Shown piece by piece: positions 9,269 to 37,171 of a stretch of 64,000 nt of DNA (its first letter is position 1; each line of letters opens with the position of its first letter). Source of the stretch: Candidatus Omnitrophota bacterium (lineage in GTDB: Bacteria; Omnitrophota; Gorgyraeia; VGKH01). A model generated the notes under the pieces. The model saw only the letters and a program-made list of their open reading frames with translations. It was not told the origin of the DNA and did no database searches. The stretch covers positions 154,850 to 218,849 of the forward strand of contig JAKLEP010000001.1 of the NCBI GenBank assembly GCA_022703055.1, read 5' to 3'. A program made the translations under genes and the position numbers.

Positions 9269-9347
9269 AAGTAGATAGGAGATAGCAGGTAGTAGGTGGG
9301 GTTTTTTAGAGTCAGCCCCAAGACCTACATTCTACCTACTACATACT
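9269..9347 (+). promoter_or_regulatory. Long imperfect hairpin filling the rnfA-rnfB intergenic gap
   Basis: Purine-rich 5' arm (9269-9301) pairs with pyrimidine-rich 3' arm (9316-9347). GGGG 9298-9301 pairs with CCCC 9316-9319. Outer AAGTA/TACTT pairing abuts the rnfB ATG. Confidence 0.55.
9324..9341 (-). repeat. 18-nt exact repeat TAGTAGGTAGAATGTAGG (reverse-strand copy)
   Basis: CCTACATTCTACCTACTA at 9324-9341 is the exact reverse complement of 31442-31459. Confidence 0.9.
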
Positions 9348-10146: not shown

Positions 10147-10211
10147 ATGAACCCCGCCCTTCCTAAATAGAGGAAGGTTGGGGTATAAGAATAGAAAGGA
10201 AGTGCGGGGTG
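10147..10211 (+). promoter_or_regulatory. Structured leader (copy 1) that can sequester the purN SD and GTG start
   Basis: CCCCGCCCTTCCT (10152-10164) can pair with AGGAAGG..GGGGT (10171-10184) or with AGGAAGTGCGGGG (10197-10209). A near-identical element lies at 35840-35899. Confidence 0.6.
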
Positions 10212-10808
10212 AATTTTGCGGTATTTGCTTCCGGTAACGGCACGAATCTGCAAGCGATAATAAAAGCGCTGAAAAAAGGAAAGATCAACGCAAACTTAGC
10301 GCTTGTACTTTCCGATAATAAAGAAGCCTACGCTCTTAAAAGGGCCAAAAGAGCTAAGATAAAAACGGTTGTGGTCGAAGCCAAAAATTTTAGCTCAAGA
10401 GAAGACTACGACGCTGAAATTGTCAAGATTTTAGAACAAGAAAAAATAGATTTTATCGTTTTGGCTGGTTTTATGCGTATCATTACCTCAGTCTTGATTA
10501 ATAACTTCCGCAACAAAATCTTAAATATCCACCCAGCATTGCTTCCCTCATTTAAGGGAACCCACGCAATTGTAGATGCCTTTAATTACGGCGTCAAAGT
10601 AACCGGAGTGACGGTGCATTTTGTAGACGAAAAAATGGACCACGGCCCGATAATATTGCAAGGTTCGGTCAAGGTAGAAGAAGACGATACTGCCGAGACA
10701 CTTGAAGCCAAGATCCATAAGATCGAACACAAAATTTATCCTGAGGCTATCCGTTTATTTTCCGAGGGAAAAATAAAAATAGAAGGAAGAAAGGCAAGAA
10801 TAGCTTAG
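10209..10808 (+). CDS. purN: Phosphoribosylglycinamide formyltransferase
   Basis: GTG start. N-terminus FAVFASGNGTNLQAII and NIHPALLPSFKG are typical PurN motifs. Confidence 0.9.
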   Translation: MNFAVFASGNGTNLQAIIKALKKGKINANLALVLSDNKEAYALKRAKRAKIKTVVVEAKNFSSREDYDAEIVKILEQEKIDFIVLAGFMRIITSVLINNFRNKILNIHPALLPSFKGTHAIVDAFNYGVKVTGVTVHFVDEKMDHGPIILQGSVKVEEDDTAETLEAKIHKIEHKIYPEAIRLFSEGKIKIEGRKARIA

Positions 10809-13383: not shown

Positions 13384-13430
13384 GGCGAGCCGACGCGGCT
13401 TGTCTGGCGTAAGGTAAGCGTCGGCTCGCC
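13384..13430. repeat. Perfect 13-bp GC-rich inverted repeat with 21-nt spacer
   Basis: GGCGAGCCGACGC (13384-13396) pairs with GCGTCGGCTCGCC (13418-13430). Lies in the divergent ftsH-like/eno intergenic region, 36 nt from the ftsH-like start. Confidence 0.85.
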
Positions 13431-29490: not shown

Positions 29491-29508
29491 GAATATAGCG
29501 AAATGTAA

Positions 29509-29555
29509 GAAGTCCTTCGACAGATCCCGGATCCATCGAAGGACTTCTTTATTTT
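29509..29555 (+). terminator. Rho-independent terminator after purL
   Basis: GAAGTCCTTCGA/TCGAAGGACTTC 12-bp perfect stem (29509-29520 with 29536-29547), then TTTATTTT. Confidence 0.85.
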
Positions 29556-29574
29556 CGGTTGTTGAGGTGGTAAG

Positions 29575-29880
29575 ATGAAAAAGATTTTGATTGTTTTGGT
29601 GTGTTTGGTGTTGGTTGGATGCGGATTGTGCCCGGCATATATGAGAAGCCAATCCGATTATATGAAAGTTTCCAATATCGCTATCGGTGGCGCATCAAAA
29701 TCGAGAGTAAAAATGATGTTCGGAGAGCCTGATTCAAAAGAAGTTTACGAAGATAAATCAGAAAAATGGATTTATAAAAATAGAGAAGATAATAAGACTA
29801 TCGTGTTTCTATTTACTCCTAGTGGCGCTGTTGGCTTGACGCAAATTATTCCGCCAGAGGGCGTAGAACAAAATAAATAG
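29575..29880 (+). CDS. Small lipoprotein (BamE/SmpA-OmlA-like, tentative)
   Basis: Lipobox LVGC. SRVKMMFGEPDSKEVY...W.Y resembles SmpA/OmlA domains. Confidence 0.5.
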   Translation: MKKILIVLVCLVLVGCGLCPAYMRSQSDYMKVSNIAIGGASKSRVKMMFGEPDSKEVYEDKSEKWIYKNREDNKTIVFLFTPSGAVGLTQIIPPEGVEQNK

Positions 29881-29934
29881 GGGACAGGCTTAGGAATAAA
29901 TCGGAGAAGGTCCCTAAATTAACAGGAGAAATGT

Positions 29935-31173
29935 ATGTCAAAGAACCCAGATTTAGGTTTTTCTCATTTTTCAGTTAAACAACTGAAAAGATATTATGAT
30001 AATGGAGAAATTTATATTAATCCAGAATATCAAAGAAGTTTTGTTTGGAAACCTACCCATCAAAGAAATTTGATTACTTCCATTCAAAATGGAAAATCAA
30101 TGGGTGTATTAGTGATATGGAAAAATAAGCAGGGCAAATACGAAATCTTAGATGGCCAACAAAGAATAATTACAATAATAAAGTTTCTTGACAAAAAATT
30201 TACTAATGATGAAAACAAGCAATTTGACGAACTTTCCGTTACAGAACAATCAGAAATAGAAGGATACAGTATTTATTACCTTGAGCTTAAAACTACTTTA
30301 AAAGAAGATGAGATTTCAGATATCTTCACTAGATTGCAAGAAGGGATACCTTTAAATCCTGCTGAAAAAGTTAACGCACTTAGAGGTCTATTTAGAGATT
30401 TTTTTATGCAAGCATACATTAGAAATAAGATTTTTTTTGAAAAATTAAATAATCATAGATTCCGAGCTCGATTATTAGCAGCGCAACTTTTATTATTAGA
30501 ACTCGAAACAAATTTTAATAAGAAAATGTTTCCTAACGCAGAATACGAAGACTTTAAAAGCATAAATAATAAATATTCTCAAAGAAATATTTCTTCGCAA
30601 AAAATAAAAGACTATAATAATTATTTAAATTTCTTAGGATTTAGATTGCAAAAAGAATTAAGGGCGATTAATTTTAGAGACTTGATTTCGTTGTATCTAT
30701 TAGTTTCTTTTCTAAGTAAAACAAGCGTAAATAAAGGTGATCTCTCGCTTTATATCAGAAAATTTGCAATAGAATTTATTAATAATTTGGAAAGTTTTAG
30801 TATATATAAACCAATAAAGCCAAAAAATTTGAATAAAAAAATATTTAATAGATATGTAGAGTATAAACAATATGCTAGGCAAGCAACAACGGCAGAATCA
30901 TTTGAAAGACGGTTTAAGTTCATACTTTCTGAATATAAGCGCTTATTCCCAAATATTAAATTTAAAGATAAGAATAGATTATTTGAAGAAAGACAGAAAA
31001 TACAAATATATTTTAAACAAAAATGCTTGTGTGCTTTTTGTAAACAACCCTTAGTTTATGAAGAGGCTCATTGTCATCATAAAGACGAATATTCAAAAGG
31101 TGGCAAGACAAGAATATCTAAGGGCGCAATGGTGCATTTTAAATGCCATAATAAAATTCATCACAAAAAATAA
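29935..31173 (+). CDS. DUF262 (ParB-like NTPase) + C-terminal HNH nuclease protein (GmrSD/SspE-like)
   Basis: N-terminal INPEYQRSFVW and ILDGQQRI DUF262 motifs. C-terminal CAFC...HCHHKDEYSKGG...FKCHNKIHH HNH motif. Markedly AT-rich gene. Confidence 0.78.
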   Translation: MSKNPDLGFSHFSVKQLKRYYDNGEIYINPEYQRSFVWKPTHQRNLITSIQNGKSMGVLVIWKNKQGKYEILDGQQRIITIIKFLDKKFTNDENKQFDELSVTEQSEIEGYSIYYLELKTTLKEDEISDIFTRLQEGIPLNPAEKVNALRGLFRDFFMQAYIRNKIFFEKLNNHRFRARLLAAQLLLLELETNFNKKMFPNAEYEDFKSINNKYSQRNISSQKIKDYNNYLNFLGFRLQKELRAINFRDLISLYLLVSFLSKTSVNKGDLSLYIRKFAIEFINNLESFSIYKPIKPKNLNKKIFNRYVEYKQYARQATTAESFERRFKFILSEYKRLFPNIKFKDKNRLFEERQKIQIYFKQKCLCAFCKQPLVYEEAHCHHKDEYSKGGKTRISKGAMVHFKCHNKIHHKK

Positions 31174-31363: not shown

Positions 31364-31441
31364 AACATAGGACCGTTTCCAGATAAGTAATTGTAATTTA
31401 ATAAGTTTTGATAGAAGTGTCCCCGTTCAGTAGGTAGGGGT

Positions 31442-31459: not shown

Positions 31460-31502
31460 GCAATTATATTTCGGAGGTTATATGGCAAAAAATAAAGTAC
31501 TC

Positions 31503-31556
31503 ACCCGCGCCCTTTCACCCGTAGGAGCGATTCTTTGCAGTAAGAAAGGGCGGGGT
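31503..31556. repeat. Third, degenerate copy of the CCCCGCCCTT...GGGCGGGG hairpin element
   Basis: ACCCGCGCCCTTTC (31503-31516) pairs with GAAAGGGCGGGGT (31544-31556), 13 bp with a 1-nt bulge. The reverse strand reads AACCCCGCCCTT, identical to 10150-10161. Confidence 0.6.
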
Positions 31557-31563
31557 TAAATTC

Positions 31564-31618
31564 GCAGACGGCCTTTGGCCTACGACTTACGTCGCTAAAG
31601 CTTCCGTAAGTCGTCTGC
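31564..31618 (+). promoter_or_regulatory. Three-way-junction-like structured leader before the LOG-family gene
   Basis: GCAG/CTGC closing stem, GGCC-TTT-GGCC mini-hairpin (31570-31580), ACGACTTACG/CGTAAGTCGT 10-bp hairpin (31582-31614). Then AAGGAG and the ATG at 31637. Confidence 0.45.
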
Positions 31619-31636
31619 TCAACTAAGGAGTTGAAA

Positions 31637-32334: not shown

Positions 32335-32736
32335 ATGGAAGAGAAAAAGAGAATAACAAGTTTTAAAGACTTAGAAGTTTATCAGAATTCATATAAGGCT
32401 ATGCTTGAAGTTATGAAAGAGGTTGTGCCTAAGCTACCGGATAGCGAAAAATACGATTTAAAAGACCAATTGAGCCGAGCATGTAAGGCGATTCCCAGAT
32501 TGATAGCTGAAGGTTATGCTAAGCGTCATCAAAAGTTCGGTTTTCAGAAATATATTGACGATGCAATGGGAGAATGTAATGAGATGGTTGTTAGTTTAAG
32601 TCAGGCTAGAGATATTTATTCTGCACAGGTCAATAATAGTTTTTGTGATGGGTTAATTGATATTTACGATAAAACAGGCAGGCAACTTTATAAATTAGGC
32701 GATAGTTGGACGAATTTTAAAAGACGCCAGACGTAA
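32335..32736 (+). CDS. Four-helix-bundle protein (23S rRNA intervening-sequence protein family)
   Basis: FKDLEVYQNSYKA...DQLSRACKAIPRLIAEGYAKR matches the family hallmark. Flanked by a 19-nt imperfect inverted repeat. Confidence 0.8.
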   Translation: MEEKKRITSFKDLEVYQNSYKAMLEVMKEVVPKLPDSEKYDLKDQLSRACKAIPRLIAEGYAKRHQKFGFQKYIDDAMGECNEMVVSLSQARDIYSAQVNNSFCDGLIDIYDKTGRQLYKLGDSWTNFKRRQT

Positions 32737-35214: not shown

Positions 35215-35829
35215 ATGAAAAATAATAAACAGAGAGTACTTATTTTCTTGTTTGTTGTTGCAGCTATTTTTTTAGCGCGTTTTGCTTTTGCCCATTGTGA
35301 TACTATGGAAGGGCCGGTAGTTAAAGACGCAAAAATTGCCTTGGAGAAATCCGATATTACTCCGGTCCTAAAATGGGTAAAACCGGATCGCGAGGCAGAA
35401 GTTATTATTGCTTTTGAAAAGGCTTTGTCGGGAAGAAAAACGCAAGATAAAGAAAAATCAGATATGGGATTTTTTGAAACTTTAATCCGTATCCACCGAG
35501 AAGGTGAAGGCGCGGGTTTTGAAGGAATAAAGCCTGCGGGTAGCGAGGTTGAACCGGCGATAGTAGAAGCAGATAAAGCTTTGGAAGAGGGTAAGGCCGA
35601 TAATTTGATTAAATTAGTTACAGATGATGCTGCCGCCGGGATAAAACAACGTTTTGACAATGCCCTGGAGAAGAAAAAACACAAGGATGAAAGCGTTGAA
35701 CTAGGTCGGGAATTTGTCGAGGCCTACGTAGAATTTACGCATTATGTGGAAAGGCTGCATAAAGATATTTTAGGCGAGGTTTCGCATCATGGCGAACATC
35801 AAGAGGCAGAAAAAGAACATAAGGAATAA
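35215..35829 (+). CDS. Secreted hypothetical protein, mature N-terminus HCDTMEGPVV, His/Glu-rich C-terminus
   Basis: Signal peptide ..ARFAFA|HCDT. SD AAGGAG. C-terminus HHGEHQEAEKEHKE. Inserted between purM and purD. Confidence 0.6.
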   Translation: MKNNKQRVLIFLFVVAAIFLARFAFAHCDTMEGPVVKDAKIALEKSDITPVLKWVKPDREAEVIIAFEKALSGRKTQDKEKSDMGFFETLIRIHREGEGAGFEGIKPAGSEVEPAIVEADKALEEGKADNLIKLVTDDAAAGIKQRFDNALEKKKHKDESVELGREFVEAYVEFTHYVERLHKDILGEVSHHGEHQEAEKEHKE

Positions 35830-35839
35830 ATATTTAGTA

Positions 35840-35899
35840 AAATGAACCCCGCCTTTCCTAAAAAAGGCTGGGTTTATAAATGGAAGGAATAGCGGGGTG
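35840..35899 (+). promoter_or_regulatory. Structured leader (copy 2) that can sequester the purD SD and GTG start
   Basis: AAATGAACCCCGCCTTTCCTAAA...GCGGGGTGAA. The 5' arm (35845-35859) can pair with the proximal 35863-35874 or with the distal SD/start segment 35885-35897. Confidence 0.6.
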
Positions 35900-37171
35900 A
35901 AGATTTTAGTCATTGGTTCAGGCGGCAGGGAACATGCTTTGGTTTGGAAGATTGCGCAATCAAAGCTAGTTGATAAGATTTTTTGCGCGCCGGGTAACGG
36001 CGGTATCGCCGAAATAGCAGAGTGCGTGAATATCAAGGTTGATGATATCGCTGGGCTTTTGAAATTCGCTATCGAGAAAAAAATCGATCTTACTGTGGTC
36101 GGGCCAGAGATACCATTGGTAGCGGGCATTGTGGATAAATTCCAGGCTAAAGGACTAAAGATTTTCGGCCCTAATAAATTCGCCGCACAATTGGAAGGCA
36201 GTAAGGTTTTTGCCAAAGAATTTATGGTAAGGAATAATATCCCTACGGCAAAATTCAAGTCTTTTGACGACAGCTTAAATGCCAAGGATTATATCGATGA
36301 AGTCGGTGCCCCATTAGTTGTAAAGGCCGAAGGCCTGGCTTCCGGCAAGGGCGTAATAATTTGCTCAAGCGAAACCGAAGCGGAAAGTGCCATAGATTTA
36401 ATCATGGAAGAAAAGGTTTTTAAAGAAGCGGGAAACCGGGTAGTCATCGAAGAATATCTTGAAGGCGAAGAGGCATCGATTTTAGCGATTTCCGACGGAG
36501 AAAATTTCGTGGTTTTGGAATCATCGCAGGACCATAAAAGGATTTTTGATAATGACCAAGGCCCTAATACCGGAGGGATGGGCGCATATTCGCCGGCGCC
36601 GGTTGTCTCGGAAAATTTAAAGCAAGAAATCGCTCAAGAAATCCTAAAACCGGTAATTGACGGCATGAAGAAAGAGGGCCATGAATTTCGCGGCGTTCTT
36701 TACGCGGGACTAATGATTACCAAGGAAGGCCCCAAGGTTTTGGAATTCAATGTCCGCTTCGGCGACCCCGAAACCCAGGCGATTTTGCCGCGTTTAAAAT
36801 CAGATTTAGTGGAAATAATTTTTGCAGCTTTAGATGGAAAATTAGCCGATTTTAAGTTAGAATGGGATAGTCGTCCATGCGTCTGCGTGGTTATGGCAGC
36901 AGGTGGATATCCGGGCGATTACGAGAAGAATAAGCTCATTTCAGGGTTAGATAAAGCCAAAGAATTAAAAGATATCGTGGTTTTTCACGCCGGAACTAAA
37001 CGCGAAAACGGTAAAATCCTTACTTCCGGCGGAAGAGTTTTAGGTGTTACCGGTTTGGGAAACGGCATAACAGACGCGATTGACAAGACATACCAGGCGG
37101 TAGCTAAGATTAGTTTCGAAAAAGCGCATTTCCGCAAAGATATCGGGGCAAAAGCCATCAGGAGGATGTAG
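35897..37171 (+). CDS. purD: Phosphoribosylamine-glycine ligase
   Basis: GTG start. MKILVIGSGGREHAL N-terminus and ATP-grasp body. Confidence 0.92.
   Translation: MKILVIGSGGREHALVWKIAQSKLVDKIFCAPGNGGIAEIAECVNIKVDDIAGLLKFAIEKKIDLTVVGPEIPLVAGIVDKFQAKGLKIFGPNKFAAQLEGSKVFAKEFMVRNNIPTAKFKSFDDSLNAKDYIDEVGAPLVVKAEGLASGKGVIICSSETEAESAIDLIMEEKVFKEAGNRVVIEEYLEGEEASILAISDGENFVVLESSQDHKRIFDNDQGPNTGGMGAYSPAPVVSENLKQEIAQEILKPVIDGMKKEGHEFRGVLYAGLMITKEGPKVLEFNVRFGDPETQAILPRLKSDLVEIIFAALDGKLADFKLEWDSRPCVCVVMAAGGYPGDYEKNKLISGLDKAKELKDIVVFHAGTKRENGKILTSGGRVLGVTGLGNGITDAIDKTYQAVAKISFEKAHFRKDIGAKAIRRM

Follow-up and report, generated by a model that had tools for sequence, protein, structure and literature searches.

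Mycobacterial MIRUs are described, in the passages on them in PMC12548453 (citing Supply et al., 1997), as apparently mobile elements that insert at start codons and carry an internal open reading frame (ORF) coupled to the gene at a −4 spacing. The corresponding lines of a second source list tetranucleotide direct repeats, imperfect inverted ends and GC-rich internal inverted repeats among their features (PMC3184786). For translational coupling, RNA-unfolding and re-initiation models have been proposed, with MS2 coat/lysis and E. coli rpmI–rplT as examples of the former (PMC12548453). Here, we report that the element at 35843–35901, which precedes purD in a window of 64,000 nt (the whole stretch of DNA analysed), is probably a short (about 51–70 bp) non-coding interspersed palindromic repeat of an Omnitrophota lineage, which is MITE-like and behaves most like the mycobacterial MIRUs. 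The literature search returned no description of this repeat family in Omnitrophota, and such repeats are unmentioned in a 2026 preprint on complete Omnitrophota genomes. The family therefore appears to be undescribed, while its kind, a MITE- or MIRU-like insertion in start codons, is already known.

As far as MIRUs (40–100 bp) are characterized in these passages, the Omnitrophota element resembles them in lying between co-oriented genes at start codons, in its tetranucleotide direct repeats and tandem copies, in its imperfect inverted ends and GC-rich internal inverted repeats, and in an internal short ORF, which in MIRUs overlaps the neighbouring genes at −4 spacing and thereby hands translation on. 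Nevertheless, there are distinct differences. The host belongs to another phylum (Omnitrophota) and the sequence is presumably unrelated, and the likeness, drawn from descriptions, is one of kind rather than of descent. Unlike what the MIRU summaries relate, the element has its own strong Shine–Dalgarno (SD) sequence and creates a GTG from its terminal G; its 13–14-bp end helix is also predicted to bury the SD and start, with an internal decoy segment in competition. Finally, the −4 spacing that those summaries give for MIRUs, in which the internal ORF exactly overlaps the gene, is found in only about one third of the listed Omnitrophota copies and in neither window copy.

The element also shares features with the bacterial MITEs (Neisseria Correia, Nezha and ERIC), being small and non-coding with terminal inverted repeats, target-site duplications and empty and filled sites in relatives, and probably also being co-transcribed with genes and forming stable RNA hairpins (PMC3184786). 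Compared with Correia, Nezha and ERIC, however, it is much shorter (~55 bp) with a 4-bp TGAA-type duplication, and its SD-bearing copies, all in the same orientation, occupy start codons and bring the SD and the start with them. Neisseria REP2 and Borrelia IR are similar in that they lie directly upstream of ORFs, supply a ribosome-binding site (RBS) and an initiation codon and contain internal stem-loops, although REP2 lacks terminal inverted repeats, is longer and carries a promoter (PMC3184786); the Omnitrophota element shows no promoter-like site. A further likeness is to the RAYT-mobilized REP/BIME/REPIN sequences, which are short, GC-rich, many-copy extragenic palindromes whose paired inverted units form a long hairpin. 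REPs usually follow stop codons and have a conserved 5′ tetranucleotide, no duplication and no translation signals, whereas the Omnitrophota element shows direct repeats and sits at gene starts. The predicted logic of anti-SD, anti-anti-SD and SD would also be that of translational riboswitch platforms, and an upstream ribosome can open a structured RBS (PMC12548453). Unlike those platforms, the element shows no aptamer or gene-function specificity and would have no ligand, and its structure arrives on a mobile repeat.

In the window, purD (phosphoribosylamine–glycine ligase) occupies 35897–37171 and all features of the element lie with it on the plus strand. The match to TIGR00877 (E = 1.1e-176, residues 1–421) begins at residue 1, so the GTG at 35897, which was made by the insertion, is the true purD start. 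Upstream of it, a relic ATGAA at 35842–35846, recognized from the empty site in the related locus L200 (L-numbers are labels of metagenomic loci compared with the window), contains the original purD start codon (ATG, 35842–35844) and, by the same comparison, the left TGAA (35843–35846) of a 4-bp direct repeat. The repeat core, CCCCGCC...GCGGGG with its inverted ends (35847–35897), follows directly, and its final G is the first base of the purD GTG. This core matches the family profile with E = 9.5e-8 (nhmmer) and belongs to the 94-copy alignment A2. The right TGAA (35898–35901) completes the arrangement: together with the preceding G it forms the GTG start, followed by AA.

The 5′ arm AACCCCGCCTTTCCT (35845–35859) can be read as both anti-SD and anti-start and has two alternative partners in the sequence, a nearby segment and the SD/GTG segment of purD. 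The local pairing joins AACCC (35845–35849) to GGGTT (35870–35874) and GCCTTT (35851–35856) to AAAGGC (35863–35868); its partner is the internal decoy segment AAAGGCTGGGTT (35863–35874), and the resulting hairpin is predicted by folding to leave the SD and GTG free. The other pairing joins CCCCGC (35847–35852) to GCGGGG (35892–35897) and TTCCT (35855–35859) to AGGAA (35885–35889), so that the partner in the sequestered fold is the 3′ arm with the GTG start, AGGAATAGCGGGG (35885–35899). The SD itself, GGAAGGAA (35882–35889), is on the element with the GTG 7 nt downstream, and its equivalent, AAAGGAAG or GGAGGAAG, is near-invariant in the alignment of the repeat family. A relic short ORF, MNPAFPKKGWVYKWKE (35842–35892), runs from the old ATG through the element to a TAG 4 nt before the GTG. 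The coordinates and pairings listed for this locus in the initial annotation are all present in the sequence.

The origin of this arrangement can be followed by comparing filled and empty sites. The window has the filled site aaaATGAA[CCCC…GGGG]TGAAGATT where a relative has the empty site aaaATGAAGATT; written at greater length, gtaaaATGAA[CCCCGCC…GCGGGG]TGAAGATTTTAGTCATTGG stands against the empty site ttaaaATGAAGATTCTAGTTATTGG of L200, so that the two sites differ exactly by the element and one further TGAA. Judged from these alignments, the repeat inserted into the TGAA of an original purD ATGAA and duplicated it, and the present GTG start is composed of the terminal G of the element and the right-hand TGAA. 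The SD is now supplied by the element, and the old ATG has been left at its 5′ edge. The purD site is filled in the window and empty in L198, L200, L202, L203, L205 and L206, and further genes of this syntenic block bear a like footprint. For nrdR, the site is filled in L197 and L200 and empty in the window and L198; for dCMP deaminase, it is filled in L171 and empty in the window; and for rpiB, it is filled in L089, L170 and L042 and empty in the window and L198. The filled sites of these four genes have TGAA on both flanks and the empty sites have a single TGAA; at nrdR, the flanks are homologous as far as the duplicated TGAA. Across the window, L198 and L200, presence of the element is polymorphic gene by gene, as predicted for a mobile element.

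The direct repeats change jointly on both sides, as TGAA/TGAA, TGAG/TGAG (L106) or TTAA/TTAA (L174), and the TGAG flanks of L106 lead to an ATG start. The L106 and L174 copies were found with a flank-free family profile, and they are the only direct counter-cases to the reading that TGAA could in principle be an end of the element instead of a true duplication. The preference for start codons rests on few cases, because the pattern used to scan the metagenome forced ATGAA and GTGAA at the ends; the unforced cases are the two window copies and five SD-bearing copies (L131, L106, L181, L042 and L200), and all five of the latter are at gene starts. A parent element or transposase with matching ends, sought as arms 300–3500 bp apart in 1.7 Mb of loci, was not found.

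The window contains a second copy of the repeat (copy 1) at 10147–10213 on the plus strand, located after rnfB and before purN (TIGR00639, E = 1.9e-75), with a family-profile match of E = 8.1e-9. It has the same order of parts as the purD copy (copy 2): a relic ATG at 10147, TGAA at 10148–10151, a core at 10152–10209, a 5′ arm at 10151–10164, a decoy at 10171–10184, an SD at 10195–10202, the GTG at 10209 and the right TGAA at 10210–10213. Its relic ORF, MNPALPK, ends at 10170, 38 nt before the GTG. The two copies have AAATGAACCCCGCC.TTCCTAAA and GGAAG..GCGGGGTGAA in common, and their central regions differ in both sequence and length, as originally noted. A 15-mer search allowing up to three mismatches gave nine occurrences in the window against 2.35 expected, and none of 100 shuffles reached nine. 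Membership of a mobile repeat family accounts for the likeness of the two copies; neither duplication nor conservation of a purine-specific regulator does.

The extent of this family was determined with the pattern ATGAACCCCGCC-N25-55-GCGGGGTGAA, built from the blocks common to the two window copies and run over metagenome contigs. Matches occur in at least 117 contigs and comprise at least 119 distinct copies of 53–77 nt, with several contigs carrying 2–4; the matches listed, minus duplicates and six GC-rich chance matches, leave 114 usable copies. Blocks that the pattern left free are nevertheless conserved, namely CTTCCTAA, the decoy GGGC.GGGGT and AAGGAAG, and the family consensus is ATGAACCCCGCCCTTCCTAA-GGGC.GGGGT-ATAGATAGAA-AGGAAGAGCGGGGTGAA. 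Among the matches listed, a plausible ORF begins exactly at the GTG in 101 of the 114 copies, and the 94 longer downstream products represent 129 Pfam families, none of which includes more than four of these proteins. From their N-terminal sequences, the downstream genes include pheT, nusG, infA, purA, pyrC, argJ, cysS, ligA, aroA and rpiB, as well as those for the ribosomal proteins L1, L9, L10, L29 and L36. Further purN copies were found in three contigs (L153, L178 and L164).

The neighbouring reading frames carry traces of the insertion as well. Among the matches listed, 68 copies are preceded by an ORF, and in 47 of these it terminates on the TGA within ATGAA, a stop that we read as the relic of an ATGA overlap. 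The relic ORF ends no more than 30 nt after the GTG in 39 of the 114 listed copies, mostly with a TGA overlapping the GTG (GTGA, −4), and in 16 of the 114 listed copies it shares the reading frame of the gene. The copies are distributed over the three frames as 56, 33 and 25, with an excess in the length class whose relic ORF can end on GTGA. At the same gene (purN or pheT) the arms are identical even though the proteins of the relatives are only ~65–80% identical, which could reflect either recurrent insertion at a hot spot or host-level selection for a function that goes beyond tolerance.

Several other origins and functions were considered for the repeat. A phage origin was rejected as there were no matches to the repeat in viral contigs, and a promoter or terminator within the element was rejected as none was found. 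Leader-peptide attenuation was also rejected: the peptide MNPALPK is conserved simply through conserved DNA, and the short ORF is a relic of the gene's own start that varies in length and frame. No credible Rfam match emerged for the complete window at gathering score, nor for both copies and the 31.4–31.7 kb region at E ≤ 10, where only noise was returned. As a separate observation, tandem arrays of the repeat in L129, L138/L110, L168 and L175 share a single (G/A)TGAA junction between copies, with four copies at two sites in L175, and are reminiscent of MIRU-type variable-number tandem repeats.

Folding was examined for both states. The local hairpin of copy 2 alone (36 nt) has a predicted energy of −16.7 kcal/mol (z = −5.0), with none of 200 shuffles as good. 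The minimum for a 68-nt stretch is the fold that sequesters the SD and start (−19.6 kcal/mol, z = −2.1), whereas the local hairpin is favoured in a 91-nt context (−22.7 kcal/mol). When each rival segment was blocked in turn, the two states were calculated to be near iso-energetic, at −18.2 versus −19.4 kcal/mol for copy 2 and −22.0 versus −21.4 kcal/mol for copy 1; with the 3′ arm blocked, the decoy fold of copy 2 beat all 100 shuffled-middle controls. Over the family, the sequestered fold is the more stable, with a median of −22.2 kcal/mol versus −17.1 kcal/mol for the SD-free fold. The helix of the inverted ends comprises 14 pairs, with 93.5% of cells paired and compensatory changes at three pairs. 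The 5′ strand of the local hairpin is the shared arm, which does not vary, so covariation is not usable there and shuffled-middle controls were used in its place: in 79 of the 114 listed copies the local (decoy) hairpin is more stable than 95 or more of 100 shuffled middles. About 15–20 of the listed copies lack a decoy and form simple perfect hairpins. Thus, the two alternative pairings proposed in the initial annotation hold up as competitive states and recur across a large family.

These properties suggest how the element might act in the mRNA. The inverted ends, retained either by descent or for a role at the DNA level, would pair in the transcript and thereby bury the SD and GTG. This burial could be relieved in two ways: the internal decoy may capture the 5′ arm, or the arm may be melted by ribosomes, whether these are ending the upstream cistron or translating the relic short ORF from the old ATG. 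Such relief would match the RNA-unfolding and re-initiation models of coupling (PMC12548453). The insertion may have been tolerated because it is translationally self-sufficient. The alternative pairings are a trait of the family, with a presumed role in translation through hairpin opening or upstream ribosomes. Since the element carries the SD and the start codon of purD, it must affect purD translation; the proposed control of purD therefore survives in a generic form, and its purine-specific part does not. For purD, the expected effect would be a generic tuning of initiation or a coupling to upstream ribosome traffic rather than purine sensing.

A more ambitious reading, which we consider doubtful, is that the repeat is more than a parasite which the host tolerates, in that its start cassette (structured SD, GUG, decoy and relic ORF) prefers ATGA junctions and, in place of native start sites, puts a large share of the housekeeping genes of the lineage, such as those for ribosomal proteins, aminoacyl-tRNA synthetases and nucleotide-synthesis enzymes, under one switchable initiation signal. 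That signal could be strict upstream-ribosome dependence, temperature or a trans-acting factor. We also regard as unlikely a reading in which the repeat spread by transposition and was then kept by the host as a domesticated, genome-wide bistable switch over many housekeeping genes, with temperature, a trans RNA or protein on the decoy or loop, or strict upstream-translation coupling as the candidate signal. The arms, decoy and SD are conserved while the spacer diverges freely, and compensatory changes are seen in the helix; however, conservation of the ends is also expected of a transposase or hairpin recognition site and of young copies. The decoy is better than chance in the 79 of 114 listed copies mentioned above and absent from about 15–20 of them. 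Diverged relatives share copies at pheT (L094, L126 and L144) and purN (window, L153 and L164), and these shared copies and the over-representation of the GTGA-ending length class (56, 33 and 25) would fit host retention, but the copies are related, so their counts are not independent, and the variation in presence and absence among close relatives argues that the element is not indispensable to any single gene.

The reading given in the initial annotation was that of a 'pur leader', i.e. a purine-pathway-specific cis element, riboswitch-like or protein-bound, that alternates between SD-free and SD-sequestered states and controls purD–purE and purN. This is now very improbable. Both window copies do precede pur genes, the two folds are near iso-energetic in both, and the copy before purN recurs in the three further contigs named above. 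Nevertheless, the same element precedes genes of at least 129 Pfam families among the matches listed, with no enrichment of purine genes and no Rfam match. The middle is variable, with no conserved pocket besides the pairing segments, and the insertion footprints point to arrival by transposition. It had been stated beforehand that purD leaders of relatives lacking the element would speak against this reading, and the element is indeed absent before purD in every relative examined (54% to 86% identity), including L202 (86%), L198 (83%), L200 (79%) and L203–L206 (73–74%), and in 80 GTDB orthologues. That the resemblance of the two intergenic regions is merely one of chance inverted repeats or low complexity has next to no probability: although AT-rich genomes often contain short GC-rich palindromes and six matches in GC-rich contigs look fortuitous (L118, L135, L137, L185, L195 and L196), more than 110 copies share long unforced identity, window shuffles never match the observed count and hairpin z-scores are about −5.

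Reading the element as a MIRU-like mobile repeat removes a false riboswitch lead. It also shows that an uncultivated phylum harbours a large family of start-codon-inserting repeats of the MIRU kind, which suggests that this selfish-DNA life-style is more general than was thought. For annotation, ATG starts become GTG starts behind a hairpin, so that gene callers misplace them, and such repeats probably cause systematic start mis-annotation. An observation of this type is nrdR at L200:15038–15550, which is called as 103 residues (ATP-cone only) and whose real start is the repeat-made GTG, GTGAAGTGCCCTTATTGCGG, with the N-terminus VKCPYCG. The cassette can further be regarded as a natural portable RBS with an anti-SD and a decoy, usable for studying the effects of structure and upstream translation on initiation rate.

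Other insertions surround the pur genes of the window. The gene between purM and purD (35215–35829, plus strand) encodes a DUF6448 protein (PF20046, E = 2.8e-54) and is absent in relatives, where purM and purD overlap by ATGA; this ancestral overlap is kept in L202, L203, L205 and L206, and the gene is thus an insertion, as the initial annotation had supposed. Genes have been inserted repeatedly at the purM–purD junction, a hot spot of such events: where the window has the DUF6448 gene, L198 has a 500-residue TPR protein (L198:5765–7267), L200 an 85-residue GIY-YIG protein (L200:9660–9917) and L204 a Band_7 protein. The purine block (purB, purL … LOG, purF, purM) is likewise interrupted by selfish-looking genes at 29575–31173 and 32335–32736. 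The gap between purL and the LOG-like gene holds an unknown ORF of 101 residues and a GmrSD_N/HNH endonuclease gene (29935–31173), and that between the LOG-like gene and purF holds a gene for a four-helix-bundle protein (TIGR02436).

A second interspersed repeat family is also represented. The purF block opens with a LOG-like gene, and the stretch 31504–31621 upstream of this gene consists of a related GC-rich hairpin, CCCGCGCCCTTTC...GAAAGGGCGGGG (31504–31555), joined to a copy of the second family (31561–31621, plus strand), a long hairpin of the form TTCGC(A/G)(C/G)A..ACTTACG…CGTAAGT..GC(T/G)CA. This second repeat shows compensatory hairpin variants (GCAGACG…CGTCTGC versus GCGCAAAT…ATGCGC), and has no Rfam match. 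A GC-rich hairpin, in many cases with a CCCCGCCC…GGGCGGGG stem, and TTAA usually stand in front of it. Its end lies immediately ahead of the SD/ATG of the following gene: in the window this is the LOG-like gene, in L198 purE and in L200 purD. The loci examined contain 12 copies, including L198:8710–8777 and L200:9937–9995, and others in L098, L100, L134, L146, L161 (two copies) and L186. A 25-codon ORF, MAKNKVLTRALSPVGAILCSKKGRG, with a good SD, GGAGGTTATATATG, at 31473–31550 on the plus strand crosses the GC-rich hairpin upstream of the LOG-like gene. Other strong intergenic inverted repeats lie at 29499–29557, 13384–13430 and 9284–9347; intergenic repeats of this kind comprise one directly after purL with 29-nt arms, a perfect 13-nt GC-rich pair, GGCGAGCCGACGC/GCGTCGGCTCGCC, and a pair, AGCAGGTAGTAGGT/ACCTACTACATACT, that resembles the GTAGGTAGGGGTTAGTAGGTAG stretch at 31430.
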